64,000 nucleotides of DNA, from the NCBI RefSeq assembly GCF_041886205.1, contig NZ_CP169029.1, one strand, 5' to 3'. Origin of the DNA: Escherichia coli (GTDB taxonomy: Bacteria > Pseudomonadota > Gammaproteobacteria > Enterobacterales > Enterobacteriaceae). Positions 429 to 21,167 of this stretch are shown in pieces (position 1 is the first letter of the stretch; each line of letters starts with the position of its first letter). Position numbers and translations under genes: made by a program. The notes under the pieces are model-generated. The model searched no databases and was not told where the DNA came from. It saw nothing but the letters and a program-made list of their open reading frames with translations.

Positions 429-1736
429 CTATCTCTGCCCAAACAGGTTAACGACATTGTTTTCCTGCTGTTGCTGGTGGTTATTCACCCGAGACTCCCA
501 GATCTCGAGAGCCTTACGCTTTTCAACCAGGTAATCGTAACGATCGTAGTGTTTAGAACTCACATCCTGTAGAGCATGGTTCTGAATGCGGTCACGCAGG
601 TCTTTAGCAATACCCGCTTCGCCCATCAGGGTCTTACAGGTACGACGAATATCACGCGCAATAAAAGATGGGCTCAACGCAAAGTGTTGCCGGTAATAAA
701 TGATGGCTTGTGCAAAGCTGTCTGTGCGTAGATGCTGTTCCGGTTTAATACGCTGCGGGAAGATGTAAGGACTCTGACTATGATTCTCAGCTTTCAACTT
801 TTCGAGTATCTCAATGGCTGACTCAGTCAAAGGCACCAGATGATCCCTTTTATTTTTCGACACATCCGCCACTATCAATAACGTTTTTTCTTCCCAGTTA
901 ACGGCATCCCAACGGCTGGAAACCAGTTCATGAGGCCGCTGGCCACCCGTATAGACACACAAGTTAAGCAATTGGCTGATTAACGGGCCGACCTTTGGTG
1001 CTTTAGGGAAATCCCCCATCAGTTGCTGCAACTCATCCAGCTTCAGCCAGTTTGTCCCTGCCTTCTCCGCTGCAGATTGTTTGGGTATGACACTCACTGG
1101 GTTCATTTGAAGCCCAAACATCACGTTCTGCTGGTGGTTTGCCGGATCGTTGTCAGCCTTCAACCCATAATTGAATGCTGCCATCAGATAAGAGCGAACA
1201 CGATTTGCTTCAACTGATGCGCCACGTTTAATAATGGTGGCCAGAATTTGTTTGATATGAGCGGGGATAACGTCACGCGCTTTCGTCGCTTTAGGTATAA
1301 ATGGATAGGTTTCTTTTTCCAGCCGGTACAAAACCTGTTGCCAGGTGCGTTTACCGTCTTCACGCATTTTGGTGGTGTAACCCAAAATGAGTTGCTCAAT
1401 GCTGCCTTTGAGCTGGTCTTCACGTTGTTGTTGTTCGGCAGAGAAAAGCTGCTCTGCGATTTCAGCTTTGGGGTCTTTCCCTTCTTTAAGAAGACCCGCA
1501 TGTTCTTTACATTGCTGTCTTGCCTGCGCGAGTGACAACTCTGGGAAACGGCCAAGCAGAATGAATTGCCGTTTTCCTTGCCAAAAATAACGATAGTAAA
1601 ATACTCGCTGACCCGATGGCTCAACTTTCACCCCTAATCGCCCTGCCCCACGCTCACCACTTTTATCCCATTCATAATAAGCAGTAGTCTTCGGCTTCAA
1701 GCCACTAATCATTGAGACAGTTAAATTATCAGCCAT
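429..1736 (-). CDS. int: Tyrosine recombinase / phage integrase, P4 family (start probably Met at 1736; longest ORF extends to 1838)
   Basis: N-terminal arm-binding-like segment (FYYRYFWQGKRQFILLGRFPELSLAQARQQ) and C-terminal catalytic region ending HYDRYDY with conserved R/H/R/Y pattern. Confidence 0.8.
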   Translation of the reverse strand: MADNLTVSMISGLKPKTTAYYEWDKSGERGAGRLGVKVEPSGQRVFYYRYFWQGKRQFILLGRFPELSLAQARQQCKEHAGLLKEGKDPKAEIAEQLFSAEQQQREDQLKGSIEQLILGYTTKMREDGKRTWQQVLYRLEKETYPFIPKATKARDVIPAHIKQILATIIKRGASVEANRVRSYLMAAFNYGLKADNDPANHQQNVMFGLQMNPVSVIPKQSAAEKAGTNWLKLDELQQLMGDFPKAPKVGPLISQLLNLCVYTGGQRPHELVSSRWDAVNWEEKTLLIVADVSKNKRDHLVPLTESAIEILEKLKAENHSQSPYIFPQRIKPEQHLRTDSFAQAIIYYRQHFALSPSFIARDIRRTCKTLMGEAGIAKDLRDRIQNHALQDVSSKHYDRYDYLVEKRKALEIWESRVNNHQQQQENNVVNLFGQR

Positions 1737-1930
1737 AGTATTTTTCAGTCCTTTGTTCGTTACGTCACCCAGTCTGATTCTGGGTGACGTAGTGGGTGAC
1801 GTAAGGATGATACTGAAGGTAAAAACGCAGAACAACATGAAACAACAACCAGCAAATAACCTACTGTTATTTATTAAATTTAATCTAACGTGAAAAAAGA
1901 TGCAAAATCATGAAACATGGATTTCATATG

Positions 1931-2731: not shown

Positions 2732-4081
2732 ATGTTAGTTAGTAAAAGCAACGAATTTAACACTAGCGCAGTTTTGGCTAGCAGGAATTATAATGAAAAC
2801 AATTCTTCCAACCCCATGGGGCTACTAGCTTATAGTATTTTAAATTTAATTTGTAAGGAAGCTGCCTCAGGGACGTACAACGGTGCTATTGAAATTTTAC
2901 AAAAAATGATGTCTGAATGTAAATATCAAGAAGGCAACGCCTTTGTCATTATGGGATCTGGAGAACAATTAAAACGTATTAAATATGATGTTGATGAAAA
3001 TAACTTAAAAGTATTCAACGTACACTTTAATAATAATGAAGAGTTAGTTACTGATGGTGAGCCTGACGTAGTATGTTTAAGCAAGCAGGAGTGGGAAAAT
3101 CTTCTCATTAAATTAAAACCGGAGATTAAAGAAAATGTGTTTTCTGAAAATAACAAATCATCGAGAGAAAATAATGTTGATCAGTATGTTCAATCCGCTA
3201 AAAGAAATGAACAGGCCCTTTTCGATAATATAATAAAAAGTGATTTTCATGTTGCTTCACTTCAGCCAGGTAGTACGCGTAGTGTTATTTCAGAAACGCC
3301 ACGAAATGTCTGTATGGAACCACGTAATTCCTATGAAACCAAAATAGATGAGATTTCATCTTTGTCAGAGTCAAAGGAACACTCCATAGATATTCAAGAA
3401 AAAACAGATGCGTTTGTGAATGAGTTCAAGGGGATATTATTTGATAAAAATGGAACGTCTTCAGAGTTTCTACTTAATTTTTATGAATGTTGCTATGAGT
3501 TTTTACCAAGAGCGCAGCCTCAGGATAAAATCGATAGCTATAATTCAGCACTGCAAGCTTTTTCCATCTTTTGTTCATCTACGTTGACACATAATAATAT
3601 AGGCTTTGATTTCAAATTATTTCCAGAAGTCAAGCTGTCTAGAGAACATCTTGAAACGGTATTCAAATACAAAAATGGCGATGATGTCCGGGAGATAGCC
3701 AAAATTAACATTACTCTCCAAAAAGAAGAGGGTGGTTTATATAATTTACGTGGATTAGATTTTAAGGGATGCTTCTTTTCTGGACAGAACTTCAGTAACT
3801 ATGATATTCAATATGTGAACTGGGGAACGTCATTGTTTGATCTTGATACTCCATGTATTTTTAATGCGCCTGCTTACAACAAGAGTAATGAAAAATCATT
3901 AGAACGCGTCAGCGAAAACGGTTTAAGTGGAGTCTTGTCTGATCGTAATAAAAAAATAAAACTCATCACGGGCGTGGCACCATTCGATGATATTTTATTT
4001 ATGGATGACGACTTTGATGATAGTTCCTCTGAGGATGATCCCGTTGAGAATAGTCCTGTTGTGACTAGTCCCCTTGTATAA
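2732..4081 (+). CDS. AT-rich hypothetical protein, ypjC-like, with pentapeptide-repeat-like segment near C-terminus
   Basis: 449-aa ORF, low GC, Asn/Ser-rich; segment NLRGLDFKGCFFSGQNFSNYDIQYVNW resembles pentapeptide repeats; position matches ypjC of K-12. Confidence 0.55.
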   Translation: MLVSKSNEFNTSAVLASRNYNENNSSNPMGLLAYSILNLICKEAASGTYNGAIEILQKMMSECKYQEGNAFVIMGSGEQLKRIKYDVDENNLKVFNVHFNNNEELVTDGEPDVVCLSKQEWENLLIKLKPEIKENVFSENNKSSRENNVDQYVQSAKRNEQALFDNIIKSDFHVASLQPGSTRSVISETPRNVCMEPRNSYETKIDEISSLSESKEHSIDIQEKTDAFVNEFKGILFDKNGTSSEFLLNFYECCYEFLPRAQPQDKIDSYNSALQAFSIFCSSTLTHNNIGFDFKLFPEVKLSREHLETVFKYKNGDDVREIAKINITLQKEEGGLYNLRGLDFKGCFFSGQNFSNYDIQYVNWGTSLFDLDTPCIFNAPAYNKSNEKSLERVSENGLSGVLSDRNKKIKLITGVAPFDDILFMDDDFDDSSSEDDPVENSPVVTSPLV

Positions 4082-4389
4082 AGTTCTAAAAGCAGTTTTC
4101 AATGATAAATAAATGGCTATTTTTACGAAGAGATAATAACGTAGATTGAAACAATATGTATTATTGATTGAGTAAACGGGATTATTATTCACACTACATC
4201 CATTTTAGTGTCACTACCAAAGAAAAAGGGGCTACGTTTTCATGTAACCCCTTGATTTATTTGGTGGGCTGGCAGTGACTGAATTGGTGCTGTAATTGGT
4301 TGAAATATTTCATCTAATGTCTGGTTTAACTTTCCTTAGCTGCCTGAAAGTTTTTTGATCTCACCCAGCAATAACAGCGTTACGGTGCA

Positions 4390-4680
4390 CCACGACTGAC
4401 TGAAGAACTGCGTGCTCAGGGTTACCACTTCAACGTAAAACCGTGGCAGGAGGTCCGGACTGAAAAAACTGCTCAGGACATTATCGGCAGGGTACGCACT
4501 GGTAGTCTGTAAACTGAACCGACTGGGGCGCAGTATGTGGCATCTTGTCGTGCTGTTGGAGGAGCTGTGCGAACGTGGTATTAACTTTCGTGCTCTGGCC
4601 CAATCTATATTTGCCCAACAATGGGGGGACGGAAGCTGTAAAAGTAAAACAATCTGCGATCTCAGAGTTATTGTGTGATT
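4390..4680 (+). pseudogene. pinH: Serine invertase (Pin/Hin family) fragment, pinH-like pseudogene
   Basis: Translation KLNRLGRSMWHLVVLLEELCERGINFRALAQSI matches the resolvase/invertase catalytic-domain core; frameshifted upstream, no intact N-terminus or HTH. Confidence 0.7.
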
Positions 4681-5007
4681 TTTATGTGAGCAGAAGATAT
4701 TCATCAGAAACGATTATGTAAATCATTTTATTTTGCCGACTGCCTGATTGTCGAAAGAAAAGAATACGCCCGGGTTTCCTGAATAGATTGACTTTTTTAT
4801 CCAACCACACTTCAGCGCACTGCGTTTAAAAAATGCCTCATTCTTATGCGGAATATCATCATTTCATCATGATGTCTTTGATGAGCGGTGAACACAATAC
4901 ACTTGCGCTGTCTCTTCAGGATGAATCCCCTGGTCTGGTGCCTGTGGGCTGATGTTGCAGCAAAGCTAAGGTCGCTTAAACGCTACTCAGTATTCACTTT
5001 TCAGAGG

Positions 5008-8000
5008 ATGAAATTTATGAACAGGACCAGTCCCTATTATTTTCGCCGCTCAGTACTTTCCTTATTGATATCTGCCCTGATATATGCTCCGCCCGGGATG
5101 GCGGCCTTTACTACTAATGTTATTGGTGTGGTAAATGATGAGACTGTAGATGGCAACCAACGAGTAGATGAACGAGGTACAACAAATAACACTCATATTA
5201 TCAACCATGGCCAGCAGAGTGTTTATGGCGGAGTATCTAATGGAAGTATTATTGAATCGGGTGGATATCAAGATGTTGGAAGGAATAACAATTATATGGG
5301 GCAGTCTAATAATACAACCATTAACGGAGGAAGACAGACAATTCATGACGGGGGCATTTCCACCGGTACGATAATCGACAGTGGCAATCAGGACGTTTAT
5401 ACAGGTGGTATCAGCAATGGAACGACAATTAAGGGTGGTAATTCACACATAAGTGGGGGGACTGCGAATGGAACAATCATTGATGGTGGCAGCCAACGAG
5501 TAACAACGCAGGGGCATGTTGACAGTACAACGATAAATAAGTCTGGCTCTCAGGACATCACGCAAGGAAGTCTGGCGACGAACACAATCATAAATGGTGG
5601 ACGACAGTATGTTGAACAGAGCACAGTAGGAACAACCACCATTAAAAATGGCGGTGAGCAAAGAGTATATGAAAGCCATGCGCTGGACACGACGATTGAA
5701 GGTGGAACTCAGTCTCTGAATAATAAGTCAACGGCAAAAAATACTCAGATCTATTCTGGTGGTACGCAAATTGTTGATAACACCAGCACCTCGGATGTTA
5801 TTGAAGTTTATTCCGGTGGCGTGCTTGATGTTAGTGGTGGTACGGCAACAAATGTTACCCAGCACGATGGTGCAATTTTAAAAACAAACACTAACGGTAC
5901 GACGGTGAACGGTACGAATAGTGAAGGTGCATTCTCCATCCACAATCACGTGGCAGACAATGTGTTGCTGGAAAACGGTGGTCATTTAGACATAAACGCA
6001 TATGGTTCGGCAAACAAGACTATTATCAAAGATAAAGGAACAATGTCAGTTTTAACCAATGCTAAAGCTGATGCGACCCGAATAGATAACGGCGGGGTAA
6101 TGGATGTTGCCGGAAACGCGACCAATACCATAATTAATGGTGGCACACAGAATATTAATAATTATGGCATAGCCACGGGAACCAATATCAACAGCGGAAC
6201 GCAAAATATCAAGAGCGGCGGGAAAGCTGACACGACAATTATATCCTCCGGGAGCCGGCAGGTTGTTGAGAAAGATGGTACGGCAACTGGCAGCAATATT
6301 AGCGCCGGAGGCTCGCTGATTGTCTATACCGGCGGTATTGCACATGGGGTTAACCAGGAGACGGGCAGTGCTTTAGTTGCCAACACGGGTGCAGGGACTG
6401 ATATCGAAGGATACAACAAGCTCTCTCACTTCACTATTACCGGAGGGGAGGCTAATTATGTTGTGCTGGAAAATACCGGCGAACTGACGGTAGTGGCTAA
6501 AACCTCGGCGAAAAATACTACCATTGATACTGGCGGTAAGCTGATTGTCCAGAAGGAGGCTAAAACAGATAGCACCAGACTTAATAATGGCGGCGTTCTG
6601 GAGGTTCAGGACGGTGGTGAGGCTAAGCATGTTGAGCAACAATCCGGCGGCGCATTAATTGCTTCCACGACCTCCGGAACACTTATCGAAGGAACCAACA
6701 GTTATGGTGATGCTTTCTACATCAGGAATTCAGAAGCTAAAAATGTAGTGCTGGAAAACGCTGGCTCATTAACAGTCGTCACTGGTTCCCGGGCAGTTGA
6801 TACGATTATTAATGCCAATGGCAAAATGGATGTTTATGGAAAAGATGTTGGCACTGTACTTAATAGTGCTGGCACCCAAACAATATATGCCAGTGCCACT
6901 TCTGATAAAGCAAATATCAAAGGTGGCAAGCAAACGGTATATGGTTTAGCCACTGAAGCAAATATCGAAAGTGGTGAACAAATTGTTGATGGTGGGTCAA
7001 CAGAGAAAACACACATCAATGGTGGCACGCAAATCGTTCAGAATTATGGTAAGGCAATCAATACCGATATCGTCTCTGGCCTACAACAAATTATGGCAAA
7101 CGGGACAGCGGAAGGTTCCATTATTAATGGGGGTTCACAGGTAGTTAATGAGGGCGGTCTGGCTGAAAACTCGGTGCTTAATGACGGCGGCACACTCGAT
7201 GTGCGGGAGAAAGGCAGCGCAACGGGGATACAGCAGAGTAGCCAGGGCGCTTTGGTTGCAACCACCAGGGCGACGCGGGTCACAGGAACACGCGCGGATG
7301 GCGTCGCGTTCAGCATCGAGCAGGGTGCGGCGAACAATATCCTGCTGGCAAATGGCGGCGTGTTAACCGTGGAGTCAGACACCTCTTCTGACAAAACACA
7401 GGTCAATATGGGCGGACGGGAGATCGTCAAAACAAAAGCCACTGCGACAGGCACGACGCTCACCGGCGGTGAACAAATTGTCGAGGGTGTGGCGAATGAG
7501 ACAACAATTAACGACGGCGGAATACAAACAGTTTCAGCTAACGGAGAGGCAATAAAAACAAAGATCAATGAAGGCGGTACGCTGACAGTCAACGATAATG
7601 GCAAAGCGACAGATATCGTCCAGAACAGCGGTGCCGCTCTCCAGACGAGCACGGCTAACGGTATTGAAATCAGCGGTACTCACCAGTACGGTACTTTTTC
7701 CATTTCCGGCAATTTAGCGACCAATATGTTGCTGGAAAATGGCGGTAATTTATTGGTATTAGCAGGTACCGAAGCTCGCGACTCCACGGTTGGCAAGGGT
7801 GGGGCAATGCAAAACCTGGGTCAGGACTCCGCCACAAAGGTTAACTCTGGCGGGCAATATACCCTTGGGCGGTCAAAAGATGAGTTTCAGGCTCTGGCCC
7901 GGGCAGAAGATCTCCAGGTCGCTGGCGGTACGGCAATCGTCTACGCAGGTACGCTGGCGGATGCATCGGTCAGTGGCGCGACAGGAAGCCTGTCGTTAAT

Positions 8001-9597
8001 GACGCCACGGGATAATGTTACGCCAGTTAAACTCGAAGGGGCGGTCCGGATTACCGATAGCGCGACATTGACTCTGGGAAATGGCGTCGATACCACGCTT
8101 GCCGACCTGACGGCTGCCAGCCGGGGCAGTGTCTGGCTTAACAGCAATAATTCCTGTGCAGGTACCAGCAACTGCGAATATAGAGTAAACAGTTTGCTAC
8201 TCAACGACGGTGATGTTTATTTGTCAGCACAAACAGCAGCGCCTGCCACAACTAACGGTATCTACAATACGCTGACAACCAATGAACTTTCCGGTAGCGG
8301 TAATTTCTACCTGCATACCAACGTTGCAGGCTCCCGGGGCGATCAACTGGTCGTCAACAACAACGCCACTGGTAATTTTAAAATCTTTGTTCAGGATACC
8401 GGCGTCAGCCCACAGTCTGACGACGCGATGACGCTGGTGAAAACAGGGGGAGGGGATGCTTCGTTTACGCTGGGCAATACCGGCGGTTTCGTTGATCTTG
8501 GGACCTATGAGTATGTCCTGAAAAGTGACGGCAACAGCAACTGGAACCTGACCAATGATGTCAAACCCAACCCGGACCCCATCCCAAATCCAAAGCCAGA
8601 CCCAAAACCCGATCCAAAGCCAGACCCAAATCCAAAACCAGACCCTACTCCCGATCCAACGCCGACACCCGTTCCGGAGAAACGCATTACGCCTTCTACG
8701 GCAGCCGTACTCAATATGGCAGCAACATTACCGTTGGTATTTGATGCTGAGCTAAACAGTATTCGCGAGCGGTTGAACATAATGAAAGCGAGTCCACACA
8801 ACAATAATGTCTGGGGGGCGACGTATAACACCCGTAATAATGTCACCACCGATGCGGGTGCCGGGTTTGAGCAGACGCTGACCGGAATGACAGTGGGGAT
8901 CGACAGCCGTAATGATATTCCTGAAGGAATTACCACGCTAGGCGCTTTTATGGGCTATTCCCATTCACATATCGGTTTTGATCGCGGAGGACATGGCAGT
9001 GTGGGCAGTTATTCTCTGGGCGGCTATGCCAGTTGGGAACATGAAAGTGGTTTCTATCTGGACGGTGTCGTGAAGCTGAACCGTTTTAAAAGTAACGTAG
9101 CAGGTAAAATGAGCAGCGGTGGAGCCGCCAATGGCAGTTACCACAGCAACGGGCTGGGCGGTCACATTGAAACCGGGATGCGATTTACCGATGGTAACTG
9201 GAACCTGACGCCGTATGCATCGTTAACGGGGTTCACCGCTGATAACCCCGAATATCATTTATCCAATGGCATGGAATCGAAATCAGTCGATACCCGCAGT
9301 ATATATCGTGAACTGGGTGCAACGCTGAGTTACAACATGCGTCTGGGGAACGGTATGGAAGTTGAGCCGTGGCTGAAGGCGGCTGTGCGCAAAGAATTTG
9401 TCGATGATAACCGGGTGAAGGTGAATAATGACGGTAATTTCGTCAATGATTTGTCGGGCAGACGTGGAATATACCAGGCAGGTATTAAAGCCTCATTCAG
9501 TAGTACGTTAAGCGGGCATCTCGGGGTGGGGTATAGCCATGGTGCCGGTGTGGAATCACCGTGGAACGCGGTGGCTGGTGTGAACTGGTCGTTCTGA
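5008..9597 (+). CDS. ypjA: Large adhesin-like autotransporter (ypjA-like); start assigned to the signal-peptide Met, ORF opens at 4888
   Basis: Signal peptide (MKFMNRTSPYYFRRSVLSLLISALIYAPPGMAA), long passenger of about 19-residue Gly/Thr/Asn-rich repeats, Pro-Asp-Lys linker, C-terminal beta-barrel ending VNWSF. Confidence 0.85.
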   Translation: MKFMNRTSPYYFRRSVLSLLISALIYAPPGMAAFTTNVIGVVNDETVDGNQRVDERGTTNNTHIINHGQQSVYGGVSNGSIIESGGYQDVGRNNNYMGQSNNTTINGGRQTIHDGGISTGTIIDSGNQDVYTGGISNGTTIKGGNSHISGGTANGTIIDGGSQRVTTQGHVDSTTINKSGSQDITQGSLATNTIINGGRQYVEQSTVGTTTIKNGGEQRVYESHALDTTIEGGTQSLNNKSTAKNTQIYSGGTQIVDNTSTSDVIEVYSGGVLDVSGGTATNVTQHDGAILKTNTNGTTVNGTNSEGAFSIHNHVADNVLLENGGHLDINAYGSANKTIIKDKGTMSVLTNAKADATRIDNGGVMDVAGNATNTIINGGTQNINNYGIATGTNINSGTQNIKSGGKADTTIISSGSRQVVEKDGTATGSNISAGGSLIVYTGGIAHGVNQETGSALVANTGAGTDIEGYNKLSHFTITGGEANYVVLENTGELTVVAKTSAKNTTIDTGGKLIVQKEAKTDSTRLNNGGVLEVQDGGEAKHVEQQSGGALIASTTSGTLIEGTNSYGDAFYIRNSEAKNVVLENAGSLTVVTGSRAVDTIINANGKMDVYGKDVGTVLNSAGTQTIYASATSDKANIKGGKQTVYGLATEANIESGEQIVDGGSTEKTHINGGTQIVQNYGKAINTDIVSGLQQIMANGTAEGSIINGGSQVVNEGGLAENSVLNDGGTLDVREKGSATGIQQSSQGALVATTRATRVTGTRADGVAFSIEQGAANNILLANGGVLTVESDTSSDKTQVNMGGREIVKTKATATGTTLTGGEQIVEGVANETTINDGGIQTVSANGEAIKTKINEGGTLTVNDNGKATDIVQNSGAALQTSTANGIEISGTHQYGTFSISGNLATNMLLENGGNLLVLAGTEARDSTVGKGGAMQNLGQDSATKVNSGGQYTLGRSKDEFQALARAEDLQVAGGTAIVYAGTLADASVSGATGSLSLMTPRDNVTPVKLEGAVRITDSATLTLGNGVDTTLADLTAASRGSVWLNSNNSCAGTSNCEYRVNSLLLNDGDVYLSAQTAAPATTNGIYNTLTTNELSGSGNFYLHTNVAGSRGDQLVVNNNATGNFKIFVQDTGVSPQSDDAMTLVKTGGGDASFTLGNTGGFVDLGTYEYVLKSDGNSNWNLTNDVKPNPDPIPNPKPDPKPDPKPDPNPKPDPTPDPTPTPVPEKRITPSTAAVLNMAATLPLVFDAELNSIRERLNIMKASPHNNNVWGATYNTRNNVTTDAGAGFEQTLTGMTVGIDSRNDIPEGITTLGAFMGYSHSHIGFDRGGHGSVGSYSLGGYASWEHESGFYLDGVVKLNRFKSNVAGKMSSGGAANGSYHSNGLGGHIETGMRFTDGNWNLTPYASLTGFTADNPEYHLSNGMESKSVDTRSIYRELGATLSYNMRLGNGMEVEPWLKAAVRKEFVDDNRVKVNNDGNFVNDLSGRRGIYQAGIKASFSSTLSGHLGVGYSHGAGVESPWNAVAGVNWSF

Positions 9598-9607
9598 CCA
9601 TCAACGA

Positions 9608-9630: not shown

Positions 9631-9760
9631 CATGTTACCAGGAGCCGCGGCTCTTTTGCGTATCCTGTTTTGTCTCCTCACCGTCTGGTCGGTGTCCTGC
9701 TGAGGCTGCTAACTTCCTGTTTTTGTTGGTGTTGTCCTTACACCGTCCAATCATGATTGG

Positions 9761-9771
9761 GCTGGCGGAGT
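9761..9771. other. Putative distal att core (imperfect repeat of ssrA 3' end)
   Basis: GCTGGCGGAGT resembles GCTGGCGGGAGT at the tmRNA 3' end (window 21340-21351); short and imperfect. Confidence 0.3.
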
Positions 9772-9825
9772 CTGAATAACATTTGCAACATAATGTTTTT
9801 ATTGTTTATTTTCCAATTCAACTTT

Positions 9826-9853
9826 CATTGGTATACCTAAGCGTATACCAATG
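9826..9853. repeat. Inverted repeat CATTGGTATAC-ctaagc-GTATACCAATG; candidate integrase arm-type site
   Basis: Perfect 11-bp arms; near-identical motif recurs at 21199-21223 at the opposite end of the element. Confidence 0.5.
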
Positions 9854-9937
9854 GCGATTTGTTGCAATGATTCCTGTGGTTAAGCGAACTTGTTGTTGAA
9901 TAGCTCACATCAAGAAAAAAACTTTTTTTACGGAAAA

Positions 9938-10030
9938 CTGTTCACACTGTTCACTCGCCATTATTTGTCTTTAATTTCAATGTGATATACGGTGAATAGT
10001 CCGTGAACAGTGAACACTTTACTGTTCACT
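9938..10030. repeat. Cluster of TGTTCAC iterons (P4 ori-like, alpha-binding type)
   Basis: At least five copies of TGTTCAC/GTGAACA in both orientations just downstream of the alpha gene. Confidence 0.6.
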
Positions 10031-10040
10031 TTCCGGGATT

Positions 10041-10070
10041 TCAGGTAAAAAAAGACCGGCTGATGCCGGT
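10041..10070 (-). terminator. Rho-independent terminator downstream of alpha
   Basis: On minus strand GACCGGCATCAGCCGGTC hairpin followed by TTTTTTT. Confidence 0.55.
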
Positions 10071-10079
10071 CCGGGTAGG

Positions 10080-12413
10080 TTATGTCGCGGTGGTTTCGTC
10101 GCACCGGGGCAGCCAGTCGGCGTTGCTTTCCTCCCTGAGCGCAAGGTTCGTCTGCATCCCCTGATTTGTTCGCCGCCTGGCGTAATTCAGCCCGTACTCT
10201 TTCAGCATCGATGACAGCCCTTTGCCGAACATGGTCAGGCTGAGGGTGTTCTTGTAGCCGTGCGCCTCCATGTAAACCAGATAGGCGTGATACAGGTACA
10301 GGCGCGGCTGTCGCGGGATGATATTCGCATTCCCCATGTACATACCGTCAGGCTCGGGCAGCGCCTCCAGATAGCCACAAAAATCGAATGTCGGGTCAGC
10401 GTCGCGCTTGATGCTGAGTGCCTCGTCGGAGTTCTGCTGCGACTGGAGCAGTGTGCGCGCGGTCATCGGGTCGCTGAACGTCTGCATAAGCTGACGCACG
10501 ATGACGGCCAGCTCGCGGGCAATTTTATCTTTCAGCTTCGGGTCACGCTCCTCCGGGGCAATCTGTTCCGGGAAGTGCATTATCACCCGGCGACGCGACA
10601 CGCCGCCGCTGCGGTCGGTGAAGCGCATCGGATTGTTGTTTACGGCCAGTATCACCGCCGGAATATGGGTGGAGTACGCATCGCGGTATTTCGGGTCAAC
10701 CGAGACCGCATCCCCGCCGGTGATGGCCTTGAGTCCTGCCCCGTCACCGCTCCATTTCTCCTGGTCAGGCAGACGTATCAGCGAGAAGCCAATCAGCGCC
10801 GCGCGCTCGCGGGGGGATTCCAGCGTTTCGATAGTCGCTGACGTGGCGTTATCTTCCCCGGCGAGCATGGTCGCTATTTCGGCCAGAATACTTTTCCCGC
10901 TGCCACCGGGACCGGTCACTTCGAGGAAGAGCTGCCAGTCGTAGCGGTTCGCCAGCACCATAAACAGCGCGGCGAGTATCACGTCACGTTTATCGGCACG
11001 CGAACCGGCGGCGCGGTCGAGCCAGCGCCAGAAATTCGGCGCGTGCGTCTCCAGCGTTTCCCCCTCCACCGGCGGGGTGAAATCCACGTCGCACAGGGTG
11101 CGCAGCCAGTGCGTTTTGCTGTGCGGGCTGAATATACCGGTACTGGTATCAAGCACGCCGTTGCGAAAGCCAATCAGCCGCCGTGGCGGGGCATCCTGCT
11201 GCGGAATAATCAGTTTCAGGGTGTCCACCACCGAGGCAATTTTCCCCGACGAAAACGGGGCGCGCAGACGCTGGAACAGCCCGGCCACGTCGCGCGCAAA
11301 GTCTGACGGCGGAATGATTTTCCATATACCGGCTTCATAGCGGGACAGGAGCTGCCCGTTCGCATCCACCGCCAGCGCTTCGCCGTAATGCTCATGCACC
11401 CGCATGGCTTTCTCACTGGTGCTCATGGCGGTAAATTCCGCCTCGCTCATGGTAGAGAAAGGGCTTTCAGCCGGTGGCCGGATGGCGTCATACATGGCTT
11501 TACGCGTGGCCTCCCCACCGTGCTGTGTATACGCATCATTCCAGTCACCGAACACCGGCGGCAGGGCGACCACGCCCTCACAGGACTCTGCGGCCGCAGA
11601 CGCTTTGGTCTGGCCGTCGCCGTTAAGGTCACGGTCGGCGGCAATGACAATCCGGCAGGCCGGGTATTTGTGACGGGCAAGGCTCGCCAGAGAAAGGAGG
11701 TTCACCGACGACAGCGCCACCATGACGGTTTCGCCGGTCAGGTGATGCACGGTGAGCGCGGTCGCGTAGCCCTCCGCTATCCACAGCCGTTTTCCCGCCT
11801 CTTTTTTCCCGTCGAGAATATGACATGTCCCTTTTACCTGCCCCCCTTTCAGGGTGCGCTTGAGACCGTCCGCGTTAATGAGCTGGACGTTAACCAGTGC
11901 GCCGCTATCGTCATACAGCGGGACAACCACATCCCCGGCACGGTACGTCACACCGCCGGTTTTGTGCATGGCCGTCAGTACCTGACATTCCCGGCCGGGA
12001 AAGCCCTTGCGGGTGAGGTAGGCGTTGCCGGTGGCCGGTTGGGTTTTCTCCATCAGTCTGGCGGCCAGCGCGGCCGCCGCTTTGCGGTCGGCCTCCGTTT
12101 CAGCGTCTGCGGCCGCAGTCACCGCCGGGGATACCGGAGGCAGGTTGCCGGTCACGGCGTTCACCTTCCCGGCCGCCTCTGACGGGGTCACGCCGAACAC
12201 TTTCTCAACCAGTTTCAGACCGTCCCCCGCGCCGCACTGGTTACAGAACCACGTCCCGCGTCCCTCCTTATCGTCAAAGCGAAAGCGGTCGGAGCCGCCA
12301 CACACCGGACAGGCCTGATGACGGTTTTTGATGACCGTTACCCCCAGCGCCGGGAGAATGCGCGGCCAGTGGCCGCACGCCTGTTTCACGGTGTCCGTTA
12401 CGTTCATTTTCAT
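10080..12413 (-). CDS. P4 alpha-like primase-helicase (777 aa)
   Basis: N-terminal zinc-binding cysteine pairs (CPVCGG ... CNQCG), central primase region, Walker A (GPGGSGKS) helicase domain; size identical to P4 alpha. Confidence 0.9.
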   Translation of the reverse strand: MKMNVTDTVKQACGHWPRILPALGVTVIKNRHQACPVCGGSDRFRFDDKEGRGTWFCNQCGAGDGLKLVEKVFGVTPSEAAGKVNAVTGNLPPVSPAVTAAADAETEADRKAAAALAARLMEKTQPATGNAYLTRKGFPGRECQVLTAMHKTGGVTYRAGDVVVPLYDDSGALVNVQLINADGLKRTLKGGQVKGTCHILDGKKEAGKRLWIAEGYATALTVHHLTGETVMVALSSVNLLSLASLARHKYPACRIVIAADRDLNGDGQTKASAAAESCEGVVALPPVFGDWNDAYTQHGGEATRKAMYDAIRPPAESPFSTMSEAEFTAMSTSEKAMRVHEHYGEALAVDANGQLLSRYEAGIWKIIPPSDFARDVAGLFQRLRAPFSSGKIASVVDTLKLIIPQQDAPPRRLIGFRNGVLDTSTGIFSPHSKTHWLRTLCDVDFTPPVEGETLETHAPNFWRWLDRAAGSRADKRDVILAALFMVLANRYDWQLFLEVTGPGGSGKSILAEIATMLAGEDNATSATIETLESPRERAALIGFSLIRLPDQEKWSGDGAGLKAITGGDAVSVDPKYRDAYSTHIPAVILAVNNNPMRFTDRSGGVSRRRVIMHFPEQIAPEERDPKLKDKIARELAVIVRQLMQTFSDPMTARTLLQSQQNSDEALSIKRDADPTFDFCGYLEALPEPDGMYMGNANIIPRQPRLYLYHAYLVYMEAHGYKNTLSLTMFGKGLSSMLKEYGLNYARRRTNQGMQTNLALREESNADWLPRCDETTAT

Positions 12414-12424
12414 GGTGTTCTCCC

Positions 12425-12745
12425 TCAGTGCAGCGCCGGTGCGGTGATATGACGGGCGCAGAGTTCATCCATCACGGCCAGCCCGAGAAAGGACAGCGAC
12501 GGCGCGGCCTTGAGTGGTCCGGCTTCCATTAAATCTTCGAGCAGGGCACAGGCAATCTGACGGCCTTTTTCCTCGCCATGCTGGCGCAGGTAGAAGCCCT
12601 CCAGCTCGGTCGCAATGGCGCTTTCCAGCGTACTGAGCGTGAGCTGCGGGTAGCGGTGCTGACGTTCGCACAGGGTCAGCCATGCACAGGCCACGGCGCG
12701 GCGATAGAGCGCGGCGCGTAAGACGGGCGTTAATGGCTTTTTCAT
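12425..12745 (-). CDS. Hypothetical protein (106 aa), satellite left operon
   Basis: ORF abutting the alpha start in the same operon. Confidence 0.45.
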
Positions 12746-13002
12746 ACGTTGCGCTCCCCGGCCAGCCAGCGCTGATTGCAGCGTTCGACCACACCTTCAA
12801 GCCGGGCGGTCATGAGGTAAATCACCGAGGTGAGCTGTAGCTGCTGCGCCGGATTGTGGCGCAAAGAGGTGCAGTCCTGCACCTGCATCAGTTCGCCGAC
12901 GAGCTGGCCGACGTTGCGAAGATGTTCGAGGCATTCGAGGTCTGCCCGGCTGATGGTGGGCTGGTTTATATTCTGCGACCGTTCCGTACTGTTAACAGGC
13001 AT
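12742..13002 (-). CDS. Hypothetical protein (about 86 aa; start at Met with AGGAG upstream)
   Basis: ORF with Shine-Dalgarno-like AGGAG before ATG at 13002; 4-nt overlap with downstream gene. Confidence 0.4.
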
Positions 13003-13073
13003 TATTTCGTCTCCTGAGGACGTGCGTATCCCTGCGCAGATACGCACATTTTATTTTGGGGTGTCGTTTTTAA

Positions 13074-13523
13074 TTACAGATAACGGCGGTAGCTGTTATC
13101 CGGTTTTATTTCCGTTTCCAGCCTGAAATTATTCCGCCATTTATGCGCCACCGGCGCCGGGCGTTTAACCGGGGGAATATCATCAGGATAGTTATCGATA
13201 TTCCGCGCCCGGTATTGCTGTAATGCCGGGTCGGCCGCTATTTCGCGTAATACGGCGTGGCGGTTTTCAGGGTTGCGCTTAAATACATCGGGATGCTCAC
13301 AGGTAAAGTCCCGCAAAAAACGACTGAGCGGAATTTCTGCCATACGGCCACCGGCAATAATACGAATGAGGATGGTGTAGGTGCGCCGGTAAGGGTTCCA
13401 GACCAGCCCCGGACAGCGGTACGGCATATCCCACGGAATACCGTCGGCCAGCACGCCCGACACCACCACATCAGGAAATCCTGTACAGCGATATGTTTCG
13501 CCCGGCTGAGGGAAATCAAACAT
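13074..13523 (-). CDS. P4 orf151-like protein (149 aa)
   Basis: Position and size match P4 orf151 upstream of alpha; GGAGG before ATG. Confidence 0.5.
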   Translation of the reverse strand: MFDFPQPGETYRCTGFPDVVVSGVLADGIPWDMPYRCPGLVWNPYRRTYTILIRIIAGGRMAEIPLSRFLRDFTCEHPDVFKRNPENRHAVLREIAADPALQQYRARNIDNYPDDIPPVKRPAPVAHKWRNNFRLETEIKPDNSYRRYL

Positions 13524-13815
13524 GGTGCTCCCCTCCGTTTCCCGACGTCGTGGCGAGAAAGTCACGGCACAGGCCTTTGGCTTTCAGCTCTTCCAGGACG
13601 TAGCTGACGTCCTCATGGATATAACTAAAAATCTGCGGCAGGTATAGCTGGTGTAAACCGTTCAGCTCACGGCGCAGCAAATCTCCACCGATGAACTGCG
13701 AGACGGCGCTGGCGCGATTGAGTTTATGGTACGCCTCAATGCTGAGGTGTTCCTGCATGGGGTTAAGGTCATCACGACGCGCTGAGATGGTCTGAGGGGT
13801 GTTTTTATTATGCAT
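13516..13815 (-). CDS. Small protein (99 aa), position of P4 epsilon
   Basis: In-frame Met inside a longer ORF; overlaps neighbours by 8 nt; position equivalent to epsilon. Confidence 0.45.
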
Positions 13816-14005
13816 GTGACACCTCCACAACCGGCAGACGGGCGGCAAGGGAAAGCACGTATTCCCGGACAAGGGTGCGGCGGGCGGCCAGCTCGTCACC
13901 GGCCACGGTGCGGAGCATACAGATACGGGGTTTACGGTCTGCACGACGGACGGCGGCAAACACAAAGACAAACTGAGGGTGTGACGGGGTGAGGGTCGTA
14001 GCCAT
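13808..14005 (-). CDS. Small protein (65 aa), position of P4 kil/eta
   Basis: AGGAGG 7 nt upstream of ATG at 14005; overlaps downstream gene start. Confidence 0.35.
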
Positions 14006-14403
14006 AAGGCAACCTCCTTCGAGTAGCAAATTATTGCTATCGCCGGAGTTCTCACGCTCAGTGGCGATAGCCCAGACGGGGGTGAGAATACCGGCCTCGA
14101 AGAATACCGGCCAGCCCGAGGGCTGCCCCGCCTGAGCTACCATTGACATGACAGCATGATATGCGATTGCGGACAGGAGACACAAAGTGACGTCTGCACG
14201 ACGATCCGCACACCACGCCATTATCTGGCGCTCTGTGGCGTTAGTTGCGACACAAAAAAAGACGCATGGCGCGTCTGGTGTCGCCTTCGAGTTACTCGGG
14301 TTCTCACGCCCGGTTACCGATTTTGCGGCAACAGCAAAACTGTACCAGGAAACACACAACGGATGCAAGCCAGAAAAAGGGGCTTTGTGAAATCGGCTCT
14401 GAT

Positions 14404-14670
14404 TCATGCGTCGTATTTCCGGTTGCGGTGCGCGACACGTTCTTCCATCCATGCCGTGATTTCAGACTGTAGCCAGGCGACATTTTTACCCCCGAGGGAA
14501 ACCTGCGCCGGGAAAGCGTTACGGGCGATTAAATCGTAGAGCGTGGAGCGGGACAGGCCGCACTGATGAATGACTTCCGGGAGACGTAAAAAACGTTCCT
14601 GAGTCGGGGCTGAAACCGGCATCGGGTGCGCGGCAGTGGGGGACGGTGGTGCTGATGAAACTGTGTGCAT
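14404..14670 (-). CDS. Vis/AlpA-family transcriptional regulator (start may be internal Met at 14622)
   Basis: [28 protein letters not shown] is an AlpA-type HTH; 88 aa as for P4 Vis; divergent from sid. Confidence 0.7.
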
Positions 14671-14944
14671 AACGCTACCTCGTTAATATCCGCAGAGATC
14701 CGGACGTATCCGTCCGGTATCAGGTAGCGCTCTATTTTGTGAATATTTTTCTTCAATGCAACAGAGGCATGTTGTGTCGTGGAGCAGTTTTGTCTGTTAT
14801 TTAAGCAGCGACCTGAAAATATGAAAAATAATTGGCACATGACGCGCTGAGACGTTCATAAATCACAGTCAATTGATATCGCCTATCAATAGATAAAAAT
14901 ATAATTATTAAAACAATGACTCTCTAAAAGGAGCTTGCCGAAAC

Positions 14945-15050
14945 CAGTGAACAGTAGTGAACAGTTGGTGAACACTTTTCTCTCAACTGTTCACTCTTTA
15001 ATTTATTGTTTTATTTATATTTTTATACTGAGTGAACAGTAGTGAATAGT
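14945..15050. repeat. Second TGTTCAC iteron cluster in the divergent vis/sid control region (crr-like)
   Basis: Six copies of GTGAACA/TGTTCAC in an AT-rich intergenic region about 5 kb from the first cluster. Confidence 0.5.
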
Positions 15051-15218
15051 TATATGTAAAAAAACAAATAGAGTGAGGGGTTTTCCTGCGACCTTTCTCT
15101 GGCCAGCCGGGTTTTTAAGTCCTGTTTGTGCCATGTCTGCGACAACGGCAATGAATCGAGTTGTTGTCTGAGGGACGGCAGAATGGCGTCAGGTTGAAAA
15201 CACAGAGAGAACCCGACG

Positions 15219-16022
15219 ATGAAACCAGATTTGTTTACCGCAGTAATGAAAACCATCGGCAGCACGCAGGATGAGAACATCCGCACGGCCATTGACAGCG
15301 CACTGGATACCCTTAACGAGAAAGCAAACCAGAACGCAGAGGCCACGATAAATAATGCGCTTGAGGCATTCAGCAAGGCCAAATCCGCGCACACGGAAAA
15401 TATGCTGAAACTGAATGATATTGATGCGGCCATTACCCGCAGTGAGAAAGAGCGTCAGAACGCCCTGAATGAAAGTGCCGAAGCGGAACAGAACTGGCGT
15501 ACCCGTTTTCGCGAACTGCGCGGCATGATGACCCCGGAACTGAAAGCCGAACACAGTCAGCGAGTGGCCGGTCGGGAGCTGGCGGAGGAATTCACCGCCC
15601 TGATTGATGAGCTCAACGATGATAAAGCCAGTACCATGCTGGCCGCCTGTACATCAGGAGATAAGTACGTCGGCACGCATTTTACGGTGTTCTCTGCCTA
15701 CTCCCGGAATGAGTGGGCGACCGTGATGAAAGACATCCCTCCCTCACTGGTGCGCGCATTTGCGTTACGTCTGCGTGAACTCGAAATGAAAGGAGAAGAA
15801 CACCCTCACAACGTTCTCATTCAGGAACTGGGGGAGAATGTACTGGCGCAAAGCAGGTACTACACATTCAACATGGCGCAGGAGCCGGTAATTTCAAAAA
15901 TTGGGCTTCACCGTCCGGCACTCACCGGCGTGGATATGAAACTCTATAAAAGCCCGGTTCTCAGAATGGCGCGGGCTAAAGAGCTGGCACAGAAGAAAAA
16001 ATCGCGGGGGGTTAAGCCATGA
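15219..16022 (+). CDS. sid: Sid-like capsid size-determination (external scaffold) protein
   Basis: Similarity to P4 Sid (NWRTRFRELRGMMTPELKAEHSQRVAGRELAEEF); first gene of sid-delta-psu. Confidence 0.75.
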   Translation: MKPDLFTAVMKTIGSTQDENIRTAIDSALDTLNEKANQNAEATINNALEAFSKAKSAHTENMLKLNDIDAAITRSEKERQNALNESAEAEQNWRTRFRELRGMMTPELKAEHSQRVAGRELAEEFTALIDELNDDKASTMLAACTSGDKYVGTHFTVFSAYSRNEWATVMKDIPPSLVRAFALRLRELEMKGEEHPHNVLIQELGENVLAQSRYYTFNMAQEPVISKIGLHRPALTGVDMKLYKSPVLRMARAKELAQKKKSRGVKP

Positions 16023-16261
16023 TGCGCTGTCCGTACTGCAAACAGGCTGCCCATGTCCGTACCAGCCGTTACCTGTCGGATAACGTCAAACAGAGCTACC
16101 TCCAGTGCGTGAATGTCTTTTGCTCCGCAACCTTTCGCACCACCGAGTCTATCGACGAGGTAATACGGCCACCGGCAGAAGAAAAGCCCGAACCGCCGCA
16201 GACAGTACCAGAAACACCGCCCCGAATTCTGGACTGCGCCCGGTCATCGCTGCGCCACTGA
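16019..16261 (+). CDS. Delta/Ogr-type zinc-finger late transcription activator
   Basis: MMRCPYCKQAAHVRTSRYLSDNVKQSYLQCVNVFCSATF with C-x2-C ... C-x4-C pattern typical of P2 Ogr/P4 Delta; 4-nt overlap with sid. Confidence 0.85.
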   Translation: MMRCPYCKQAAHVRTSRYLSDNVKQSYLQCVNVFCSATFRTTESIDEVIRPPAEEKPEPPQTVPETPPRILDCARSSLRH

Positions 16262-16277
16262 TTCAGGAGAAAAGACA

Positions 16278-16853
16278 ATGGCACGAGCACTACTGGAACA
16301 GGCCTTTGAAACCTGTCAGAAGAATAAATCGGACTGGGTGAGCAGCAAGTCAGCACTGGCGCGGGCTGAAATGGCGCTGAAAGAGCTGGAGCTGACCTGC
16401 ACCCGTTATGAACCGGAGGCCGCACAGGCGCTGCGGGATGATATTGACCTGAAAAAATGGGCGGTAAATCAGTCGGCCGGGCAGTACATCCGGTCACATG
16501 AGGCCGTGCAGCGTATCAGTATCCGGCGTCAGCTCCACGCCTTTATGCAGGTAAGCGGCGACGCGCTGGCCGCCGCACTGGCACCGGAATTAATGCATCT
16601 CTGCGAACAACCTGACATTGTCAGAGAACGGGCTCTCGACCGGGCGGCCGCCAGTGTTCGCGAAGCGCTGTCCGTTTATGTAACCCGCGGAGGAAATATT
16701 GATTACGCAGAGGATGATCGCGACATTCTGACAACCATCGGTTTCCGGCCTGACAGAGCATCGAGAGACGACAACCGGGCAAAATATACGCCTGAACAGA
16801 GTCAGATTTTCATGCGCCGACAGGCCGCGCAGACCCGCAAAAAATCCGCATAA
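16278..16853 (+). CDS. psu: Psu-like polarity suppression / capsid decoration protein
   Basis: KWAVNQSAGQYIRSHEAVQRISIRRQL and ALAAALAPEL and DILTTIGFRPD match P4 Psu; 191 aa. Confidence 0.85.
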   Translation: MARALLEQAFETCQKNKSDWVSSKSALARAEMALKELELTCTRYEPEAAQALRDDIDLKKWAVNQSAGQYIRSHEAVQRISIRRQLHAFMQVSGDALAAALAPELMHLCEQPDIVRERALDRAAASVREALSVYVTRGGNIDYAEDDRDILTTIGFRPDRASRDDNRAKYTPEQSQIFMRRQAAQTRKKSA

Positions 16854-17017
16854 AACGCCCCGAAAATACCCGTCTTTTTAATAAAAATAGCCATGCATGC
16901 CTACGCTGCATGGCTTTGCATGCAAAAACCTGAATTTTCCACACCCCGCCGCACCAGCACTGGCGCGGCCTGAGTCCCTTCATGCGCCTGCATTAAAAGT
17001 GCCCCACGAAGCGGGCA

Positions 17018-17036
17018 GGCGTGGCGGGGAGAGCAT
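17018..17036. other. cos-like cohesive-end site
   Basis: GGCGTGGCGGGGAGAGCAT matches 16 of 19 positions of the P2/P4 cohesive end as I recall it; lies after psu as in integrated P4. Confidence 0.45.
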
Positions 17037-17113
17037 TGCGCGCCAAGCGATATATAATTAATTAATGAAGAAGGATAGAATTAACCATATAGCCATAAAA
17101 AAGGATGCGGGTG

Positions 17114-18685
17114 ATGAAGGCGAGTGATATGCAGCACTTATGTAATATAGCCAGAGAGCTTGTTTCTGATGGCAAGTTTGAAAAGGCGTATGAGTTCACG
17201 TTGCAGATTTATAAATCCCTTGACGAAAATATCTTTGGGGATAATTACTATATACTTCTTTATAATATGGCTGCGAATTTTGTTGATATAGGAGGAATGC
17301 AACCGAATAAAGAGGCTTCTCTGCTAGGCTATAACTTAATGAATGAGCACTTTGACTCTTTTTCTAAAATTATGGATGAATCTACGCTCTATTATAACCT
17401 AGCAAACGCAAAGTCAAACTTGGTTGAAAAAGGCAGTGTTTTTAAACAAACGTTTACAACAATTGAGGATATGGTGGATGTAAAAAATTTATACTGGAAG
17501 GCATTTAAATTACTCGGTGATGATAATACTATATATAGCAAAGAACTGAAGGTCAATTTAGCAAACTCACTCAAGCAACAGTTTAGAGTTGTAGAGTCTA
17601 TTTCATATTATGATGATGTTATTTCCTCGGGGGAAGATATACCGCAAGCATGGATTAACAGGTCTGAAGCCTTAATGCTATTGCTGCAACTCTCTGGTTC
17701 TCATACTATAAAGCATATAAGAGAGATTAGACTTGGATATATGAAAGCAATTGAATCAACAGAGATGCCACCGCCATGGAAACCACACTTTCAATCACGT
17801 GCTGAAAAACTCACGGAAGATATAATCGAAATGTCGGGAAAACCATTTTTTGAAAAAGAAGATGAGCTTGATGAAAAACAGACGCTAGAAGAATATAGCA
17901 AACTTAATAATTATCAAAAATTCGTTTTAGATAACCACTTTGTTCTTTCTGAGCATGGGGTGTATTGTCCTTGCGTAGTTGGGGCTAAAGATAACCTAAC
18001 AATATTACCAACACATAATGATGTTTCTGGTGATTTTATTATTCCCATGGAAATGGTTTTGAATAGGCTAAAGTCTGAATATGCTTTGGCAAGGCGCTCG
18101 TTATTCGAGTATGAGTACATGGAGGAAGTTGATGATGTGGCCTGTTATTCAGAGTTGTATAACGATGAAGTTTTAAATGTTGGTGTTGAGAAGATAAGAA
18201 ATGCATTTCGTATATGTTTTGGTGTGTTAGATAAAATAGCTATTGCAATATGTGAGTTATACGATGTTTATCCAGCCAATAAAATAGTGTACTTTGAAAA
18301 TTTTTGGCAATTAAACCAAAATGGGCGAAGGGATAAGTTTGAAGAAATAAAAACTCCAGCTTTACTGGCTTTATATAGTCTAGCTACTGACCTAAATGAT
18401 AGAAAGAATGGTGAATTATCCTTTTATAAGGATTGGAGAAATGATTTGGAACATAATATAGTGATCGTTCATAAAGATTGCGAGCCTTTAGATATATATA
18501 ATTCCTACGGTTACATGAAGAATATTAGGTTGATATCGGAGTCTGATTTTACTAGACATTTTAAAGTGTTATTGCAAATAGTACGCTCAGCAATTTTTCT
18601 TTTTACCTTTATGGTAAGAGAAGAGGGGGGTAAAAGTAACAAGGATTCATTTTTGATATCAAACTCACTAGATTGGAAAATATGA
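17114..18685 (+). CDS. Cargo protein A (523 aa): TPR-like N-terminal half, C-terminal Rx4H HEPN-like motif; function unknown, candidate defence protein
   Basis: AT-rich ORF with AAGGA 8 nt before ATG at 17114 (ORF opens at 17105); helical repeat-like N-terminus; motif WRNDLEHN near C-terminus; lies in the cos/psu-int variable slot. Confidence 0.7.
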   Translation: MKASDMQHLCNIARELVSDGKFEKAYEFTLQIYKSLDENIFGDNYYILLYNMAANFVDIGGMQPNKEASLLGYNLMNEHFDSFSKIMDESTLYYNLANAKSNLVEKGSVFKQTFTTIEDMVDVKNLYWKAFKLLGDDNTIYSKELKVNLANSLKQQFRVVESISYYDDVISSGEDIPQAWINRSEALMLLLQLSGSHTIKHIREIRLGYMKAIESTEMPPPWKPHFQSRAEKLTEDIIEMSGKPFFEKEDELDEKQTLEEYSKLNNYQKFVLDNHFVLSEHGVYCPCVVGAKDNLTILPTHNDVSGDFIIPMEMVLNRLKSEYALARRSLFEYEYMEEVDDVACYSELYNDEVLNVGVEKIRNAFRICFGVLDKIAIAICELYDVYPANKIVYFENFWQLNQNGRRDKFEEIKTPALLALYSLATDLNDRKNGELSFYKDWRNDLEHNIVIVHKDCEPLDIYNSYGYMKNIRLISESDFTRHFKVLLQIVRSAIFLFTFMVREEGGKSNKDSFLISNSLDWKI

Positions 18686-18814
18686 AAACATTACGTTGCA
18701 AGTATATCTTGTATTCGTTCAACTTTGACCTGACACACCTCTGGCACAAAGCCCCAATCTCATAGGCGGTTCTATGCCAGGGGCTGAAAGTCTGTCTCTG
18801 GTAACATACACTTA

Positions 18815-19801
18815 TTATGTTATATTGAGGAAATCTGGGATATTAGCTGGTTCAAGGTCAAAAATATATTTAATGATTCCGGCTTTTAGGTTCTCCTCAA
18901 TTCCTTTCCTGAAATCTAGAATACTTGAGATTGTTGCATCATGTTGTAAATGATGTCGCCAGTGAACATCTTTTTCTCGACTATGAAAAGATAACAATCG
19001 GGTTAGAGCCATATGTGCGAACATTCCTGATTGTTCATCGATTGTATAATGGGCAACCACGTGGGAATCAGAATATGATTCTTTCGTAGAAAGATCCCAA
19101 GAATGAAATAATTGCTGAGCAATTGGTGATAGATCCCTTATTTGTTCATTTCTTCCGTTAGTGAAGTAAACATCATCTATGACGGTATGCCAGTTTTCTT
19201 GTGTCCCTTCATCTGTTTCAATGGTTTCAATAATATTTTCTTTCTTGAAACTTATATGAACACCTGAATTAACTTGTGGAGTGTAGGTGAAGTCACCTAA
19301 AACTTTACTCATTAAGCTATTACGCATTGCATCATTGAAATTAAGATTGAAATTTGTTTTTGCCTTTGTAAATAAATCTAGATCTACCAGGCTCCAAATT
19401 CCATGTCTTCTCCAGGCAATTAAAACGGGCAGCCCTAATAATTGGCCGTAAGCTCTTAATCTGGACACGTAATCTGGACGAAAAGACAAAACATTTCCCA
19501 TGTAAGATTTAACTTCAATCAAAACAGTAGTCTTGCCTGCGCCACGCACATTAAAATTTGCTAGTAAATCTGGAACCTGAAAAGTCTTGTTAGAAGTAGT
19601 TGGATACTGCTGTTGATCCAATTTATGGACTAGGTTGCATTGACCTAGCCAACCACAGATAATCGAAAACTCGTCTTCTAACGGGAGGCCAATATTAAGT
19701 CTATTTACACGTTCAGCGATAGCCTTAGCGTCAGCCTCCCAACCCAGTTGCTCTAGAGATTCATGTATAAGTCTCTCTAAATCTGTCGGCTTATCTTTCA
19801 A
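18815..19801 (-). CDS. Cargo protein B (328 aa): putative PD-(D/E)xK-fold nuclease; function unknown, candidate defence protein
   Basis: AT-rich ORF; VPDLL ... 16 residues ... VLIEVKS fits the PD-(D/E)xK spacing; convergent with protein A. Confidence 0.7.
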   Translation of the reverse strand: MKDKPTDLERLIHESLEQLGWEADAKAIAERVNRLNIGLPLEDEFSIICGWLGQCNLVHKLDQQQYPTTSNKTFQVPDLLANFNVRGAGKTTVLIEVKSYMGNVLSFRPDYVSRLRAYGQLLGLPVLIAWRRHGIWSLVDLDLFTKAKTNFNLNFNDAMRNSLMSKVLGDFTYTPQVNSGVHISFKKENIIETIETDEGTQENWHTVIDDVYFTNGRNEQIRDLSPIAQQLFHSWDLSTKESYSDSHVVAHYTIDEQSGMFAHMALTRLLSFHSREKDVHWRHHLQHDATISSILDFRKGIEENLKAGIIKYIFDLEPANIPDFLNIT

Positions 19802-19960
19802 GGTAGCTCCCTATAGGTTTAGTTCGAACTCAATAAGTTATATGTCATTAACATATTACAAAGTTATGCCATTATCGCTTAAAGCCGATCATCATGTAAG
19901 AATACATTATATCCGTGGCAACGGTTAGTGCTAATTCACAGATATACTGAGCAAAAATTT

Positions 19961-21148: not shown

Positions 21149-21167
21149 TGTGGCCGCTCCTTCATGA

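Follow-up and report, generated by a model that had tools for sequence, protein, structure and literature searches.

A probable internal remnant of a Pin/Gin-type invertase gene, pinH, between IS3 DNA and the ypjA module of Escherichia coli

The 64-kb stretch of Escherichia coli DNA analysed here (the window) very probably carries a dead internal remnant of a Pin/Gin-type serine invertase gene, pinH, at positions 4451-4609; to judge from its sequence, the remnant would be enzymatically inactive and drifting neutrally. By alignment, this relic is the pinH pseudogene of K-12, which is already catalogued in K-12 and is also annotated by PGAP, and it illustrates how genes decay at a hot spot of integration. 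Additions to the existing annotation are a 5′ truncation that is bounded by IS3 DNA, about 42 bp of non-invertase sequence within the annotated pinH, and the edge of the ypjA module. The relic and ypjA also appear to lie inside an old element integrated at ssrA, which helps in reading the layered ileY-ssrA region. The features of the locus are listed below by position in the window.

4200-4283, minus strand: match to the ogr-side attP arm, with a hairpin and a degenerate ssrA 3′ end (left-hand context)
4356-4373, plus strand: first 18 bp of the IS3 left terminal inverted repeat, TGATCTCACCCAGCAATA
4373-4447, plus strand: internal IS3 fragment from insF/orfB, about nucleotides 543-618 of the 1258-bp element
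4439-4678, plus strand: span equivalent to the K-12 pinH (b2648) annotation, an open frame to the first stop
4451-4609, plus strand: invertase fragment proper, approximately PinE codons 42-94 (pinE nucleotides 124-282)
4610-4636, plus strand: unassigned 27 bp between the fragment and the ypjA module
4637-4987, plus strand: right-hand boundary, formed by native upstream DNA of the ypjA autotransporter module

Extent and identity of the invertase fragment

The sequence-only reading of this DNA had recognised a Pin/Hin-type invertase, and alignment to e14 Pin bears this out at both the nucleotide (85%) and the amino acid (80%) level. Nucleotides 124-270 of pinE (b1158), a gene of the defective prophage e14, match window 4451-4597 without gaps in blastn (125/147 identical, E 2e-45), and BLASTP aligns PinE residues 44-94 to the translated fragment with 41/51 identities (E 8e-25). 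The tblastn match to PinE covers window 4439-4609 (E 2e-22), and protein-level similarity of the invertase fragment reaches 4609, beyond the end of the DNA match at 4597. The Pfam Resolvase profile (PF00239) scores 35.5 bits on the fragment against a cut-off of 23.3, with a match that is limited to profile positions 51-102 of 145. About 53 codons (~160 bases) survive of a 184-codon gene. Only the central catalytic-domain portion is therefore present, as had been proposed, and matches to PinE residues 44-94 and to the middle of the Resolvase profile define it.

The fragment retains the region of the (D/N)RLGRS motif, where the conserved arginines of the catalytic domain lie, and lacks the serine nucleophile, the E-helix and the HTH. 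Relative to PinE, conserved residues have been substituted (D to Y, W to C, D to N, R to W and R to C). Nothing in 3800-5100 corresponds, at E values up to 50, to PinE residues 1-37, in which the nucleophilic serine (Ser9/10) lies, and residues 95-184, which hold the E-helix and HTH, have no significant match in the same interval at the same threshold; the earlier remark that the C-terminal HTH is missing thus stands. Further invertase sequence was found on neither side of the fragment in any frame at lenient thresholds, the invertase-homologous frame has no start codon, and the 64-kb window has no other invertase (pin) or IS3 sequence. The first 123 nucleotides of the invertase gene (the N-terminal 41-43 codons) are missing at the locus. 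In genes of this type, the Fis-dependent recombinational enhancer lies within the 5′ portion.

Two short segments further right, CTGATTGTCGAAAGAA at 4744-4759 and GGTTTCCTG at 4773-4781, were considered as collinear invertase matches and were rejected as chance resemblances; both lie inside the ymgJ-like block. The 27 bp at 4610-4636 could be what is left, in degraded form, of the next part of the invertase gene. In the allele alignment, two alleles (L007 and L010) are more pin-like just upstream of this interval, and local alignment to pinE nucleotides 271-555 scores at shuffle level, with 60-81 of 300 shuffles attaining the score.

Crossover sites and invertible segment

A 26-bp pattern for pix/gix/hix-like crossover sites, with up to 3 mismatches allowed, has no match in the 64-kb window, and neither does the AAACCNNSGTTT core. 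The same 26-bp pattern recovered both pix sites when it was applied to e14 as a positive control; these sites are 1.8 kb apart and one of them lies 55 bp upstream of pinE. An inverted-repeat scan gave no plausible inverted repeat framing the relic. The view that the relic has no invertible segment is upheld by these searches for flanking inverted repeats and gix/hix-like sites. Homology with e14 Pin, Gin of Mu, Cin of P1 and Hin of Salmonella extends only across PinE residues 44-94, and in comparison with these four systems the fragment is without a start codon, the serine region, the E-helix, the HTH, crossover sites and an invertible segment.

IS3 remnant on the left side

On the left, invertase sequence runs out at approximately 4449-4451 and directly abuts IS3 DNA. 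The adjoining piece of insF (~75 bp) matches IS3 at 69/76 positions (91%, E 2e-25, blastn) and InsF at residues ~57-83 (E 8e-10, tblastn); Pfam HTH_21 is detected on it at E 5e-4, below the Pfam cut-off. This piece is joined directly to the invertase fragment on its right and to the left terminal inverted repeat on its left. The repeat matches the IS3B terminus at 17/18 positions in the window and at 18/18 in the K-12 allele; an 18-bp match is not significant by itself and becomes convincing through the abutting insF piece in the same orientation and the exact element end. About 93 of the 1258 bp of IS3 are left, without the right end or a transposase ORF, so the element is far from complete. 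The IS3 remnant that bounds pinH on its 5′ side carries no annotation in the RefSeq records examined, and its recognition is a modest addition.

These boundaries revise two points of the sequence-only reading. It had placed a frameshift upstream of the recognisable portion; there is no invertase frame there, the sequence to the left of ~4449-4451 being the IS3 remnant. It had also given the relic a span of 4390-4680, which does contain the invertase fragment and includes foreign sequence at both ends, namely IS3 insF at 4390-4447 (~58 bp) and the ypjA upstream block at 4637-4680 (~44 bp).

Right flank and the ypjA module

The block at 4637-4987 is 88.6% identical to the ymgJ-ycgI locus over 351 bp, and 9253-9607 is 96.6% identical to the same locus. 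The ymgJ-ycgI paralogue (L005 7001-7704) lacks everything equivalent to 4988-9252. Since both ends match the ymgJ-ycgI locus, 4637-9607 can be delimited as the ypjA gene module with its left edge at 4637; the module extends from 380 bp upstream of ypjA to 10 bp beyond its stop codon. The genes pinE, ymgJ and ycgI of K-12 (~13 kb apart) have the same order and orientation as the pin relic, the block and ypjA here, and this parallel may be a coincidence.

Inside the upstream block, a 39-aa ORF, MPHSYAEYHHFIMMSLMSGEHNTLALSLQDESPGLVPVG, at 4833-4952 is conserved. The stretch 4833-5016 just upstream of ypjA has 4 variable sites among 7 alleles (variability 0.02), compared with ~20% variable columns in the ypjA 5′ coding region and in the relic, and it is conserved in the ymgJ paralogue too. 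Neither Rfam nor Pfam gives a match for it, and Rfam has no match anywhere in 4000-5100. The stretch could serve as a conserved leader or have a regulatory role.

Plasmid matches to 4637-4800 were set aside, being stretches of chromosomal ymgJ-minE DNA in entries that are filed as plasmids. Two PLSDB entries filed as E. coli plasmids, NZ_CP041417.1 and NZ_CP010135.1 (L005 and L006), carry ymgA-ariR ... minCDE ... hlyE, which are core genes of the chromosome; the entries represent either replicons of very large size that derive from the chromosome or contigs that were assigned wrongly.

Correspondence with K-12 pinH

The pinH pseudogene of K-12 MG1655 (b2648) occupies 2783065-2783304, between ypjA and ypjB. 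Window 4083-5020 (938 bp) aligns with the K-12 ypjB-pinH-ypjA interval at 98% identity without internal gaps, and this alignment places b2648 on 4439-4678; the match to the K-12 pinH position that had been suggested from the letters is correct. Locus, neighbours, orientation relative to ypjA and truncation points are the same in both, and the frame equivalent to K-12 pinH differs from that in the window at 7/79 residues. Because its span runs to the first in-frame stop, the annotated K-12 pinH includes 42 bp of non-invertase sequence. In other strains, PGAP labels the equivalent of window 4442-4609 as ‘recombinase family protein, missing N-terminus and C-terminus’.

The surroundings differ from K-12 in two respects: ypjC and ypjB are fused in one ORF (ypjCB) in the source strain and are separate genes in K-12, and the spacer between ypjA and ssrA holds a P4-like satellite in the source strain, not CP4-57. 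The ‘PinH’ of O157:H7 is an intact 22-kDa invertase of prophage CP-933H that shares the name and family and lies at a different locus. A search for literature on pinH yielded a deletion list and, apart from that, nothing but this unrelated PinH of O157.

Distribution and neutral decay

An 801-bp region around the relic is 100% identical in several complete E. coli genomes, and related sequence is present in nearly all. The same truncated architecture occurs in 3002/5426 complete E. coli genomes (~55%) at 89.9-100% identity. In a spread sample of these genomes, every copy that covers the region is 799-802 bp long relative to the 801-bp query, and this equality of length indicates that the truncations are old and fixed; the same spread sample has no more complete ancestral or intermediate allele. 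The junctions are identical in all 6 aligned alleles. A species scan with one genome per bacterial species, based on a degenerate pattern that requires an exact match, returned two contigs only, both E. coli-like. These contigs, L012 and L013, carry the pinH locus at 96.5% and 94.3% identity; their assemblies go under the names Terrisporobacter mayombei DSM 6539 and Planococcaceae MAG UBA3370, and E. coli contamination or mis-binning is the probable explanation.

Several alleles show further decay, with a 1-bp deletion that causes a frameshift in L009 and in-frame stop codons in L007 and L010. Among alleles, variable sites of the relic fall on codon positions 1/2/3 in the numbers 7/10/8, and pairwise dN/dS is 1.1-1.9, compared with 0.36-0.48 for the adjacent ypjA coding sequence. 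This even spread over codon positions, together with dN/dS values of 1 or more, argues for neutral decay. Column variability of the IS3 and pin pieces is 0.19-0.24, equal to that of the left intergenic DNA (0.22) and much higher than the 0.02 of the stretch at 4833-5016. The pinH fragment is not an intact ORF under purifying selection.

Other readings of the locus

The relic could have been co-opted: features on its minus strand could together yield a novel gene, or a transcript, antisense or divergent, with an influence on ypjA. Two features come into consideration besides the terminator hairpin at 4253-4226.

4754-4725, minus strand: promoter-like site upstream of the antisense ORF
4704-4336, minus strand: antisense 122-codon ORF across the whole IS3-pin relic

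The promoter-like site matches 10/12 positions; 2 such sites were counted, against 2.0 expected from shuffles, and the hairpin that would end the transcript is equally explicable as a terminator of ssrA or ypjCB. The antisense ORF is open in 9/11 copies examined, including alleles that are 8-9% divergent, yet it is frameshifted in L009, its C-terminus is altered in L008, it has no Pfam match and PGAP leaves it uncalled in most genomes. Its dN/dS of 0.41-0.56 against the two most divergent alleles would suit a coding sequence, whereas values against closer alleles are 0.82 and 2.4, and variable sites are spread over its codon positions as 23/17/23 (chi-square p 0.56). Constraint on the 122-aa ORF is not convincing. 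Co-option in general is thus very improbable, and its specific form is a shade less probable again; in this form the ORF, or a transcript from 4754-4725 to 4253-4226, would have arisen from pseudogene DNA as a young gene or a regulatory RNA, divergent from the ypjA leader.

A neutrally decaying invertase remnant is the preferred reading, and no result speaks against it. The Pfam match is to the generic Resolvase catalytic domain that is common to all small serine recombinases, and would by itself also fit descent from a Tn3-family resolvase or another small serine recombinase outside the Hin/Gin/Pin group. Such a descent is extremely unlikely given the 80% amino acid and 85% nucleotide identity to e14 Pin. 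Among invertases, the fragment comes closest to genes of the pinE type (85-88%) and to those of P2-like phages (79-85%), the top phage and plasmid DNA matches are all annotated as DNA invertase, pinE or hin, and the sole PDB matches at E <1e-3 are the Gin structures 3UJ3 and 4M6F, which match the fragment at residues 44-95. No evidence was found for a truncation that arose in assembly or sequencing, or that is peculiar to this strain, with an intact invertase at the locus; the probability of this is negligible because the same junctions recur in 3002 independently assembled complete genomes and in all aligned alleles.

Proposed origin and the ssrA-end repeats

The arrangement of the locus suggests a sequence of events for the pinH remnant. 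An invertase gene of the e14/P2-phage type would have been carried by an old mobile element that used the ssrA 3′ end as its integration site. IS3 would then have inserted upstream of this gene, its left terminus at 4356 still being intact today. A deletion inside IS3 would have removed nucleotides ~19-542, and a second deletion, from IS3 nucleotide ~619 to invertase nucleotide 123, would have taken away what was left of IS3 on the right, the beginning of the invertase gene and the intervening DNA; the order of the insertion and the two deletions is presumed. The promoter-proximal crossover site and the invertible segment would have lain in this lost interval. Because the left end of IS3 is intact, the 5′ part of the invertase gene appears not to have been displaced leftward, but to have been deleted along with the right part of IS3. 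The 3′ part ends within 27 bp of the module edge, which suggests that it was lost when the ypjA module was joined or in a deletion that ended there. Afterwards the remnant would have drifted neutrally and been inherited vertically in ~55% of E. coli genomes.

The left-hand context of the relic contains phage-like and ssrA-like sequence. Among the 290 bp that precede the IS3 end on its left, a 75-bp stretch is 90.7% identical to the ogr-side attP arm of Fels-2 and P2-like phages with ssrA as integration site, and a terminator hairpin, AAGGGGTTACATGAAAACGTAGCCCCTT, lies within this match at 4226-4253. A degenerate copy of the ssrA 3′ end at 4262-4283 is followed by ~20 bp (to 4302) with a resemblance to the distal CP4-57 end beside psaA in K-12. 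Just past ypjA, at 9757-9776, there is another ssrA-end-like copy, and the real ssrA is at 21333-21695, behind the P4-like satellite. The IS3 remnant, the pin relic and ypjA are bracketed by these direct ssrA-end repeats, which points to an old ssrA-integrated element and not to core chromosome. This position is as would be expected, from the layout of the repeats, for an old ssrA element that was pushed outward by later integrations. The location of the relic between ssrA-end-like repeats and beside a Fels-2-like attP arm agrees with the proposal that a phage or invertible-segment system once present here has decayed. All E. coli copies of the arm at 4200-4261 occur at this one locus, and the arm is either phage-derived or a displaced native ssrA terminator.

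Other features of the window

The P4-like satellite at ssrA occupies 9785-21330 and encodes a primase-helicase (10080-12413, minus strand), Psu (16278-16853, plus strand) and an integrase (19961-21148, minus strand). Its cargo between psu and int consists of a 526-aa HEPN_LA2681 protein (17105-18685) and a 328-aa protein without a Pfam match (18815-19801). The closest genome has an ATP-binding protein and a SIR2 protein in the same slot of the satellite, and this difference in contents suggests that the slot is variable and probably devoted to defence cargo.

Near the left end of the window, at 429-1982, the gene for a 469-aa tyrosine integrase (429-1838, minus strand) adjoins what is apparently the 3′ part only of the tRNA-Ile gene ileY. 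Homology of this ileY remnant to other genomes begins at 1930; ARAGORN predicts no tRNA there, and Rfam gives a weak tRNA-like match at 1916-1966. It seems that ileY has received an island, the other end of which lies outside the window.

Between this island and the pinH locus, ypjCB (2732-4081) forms one 449-aa ORF with DUF5507 and DUF5508 domains, in a region of very low G+C content (33-36%). The same ORF is frameshifted or has internal stop codons in several other strains.
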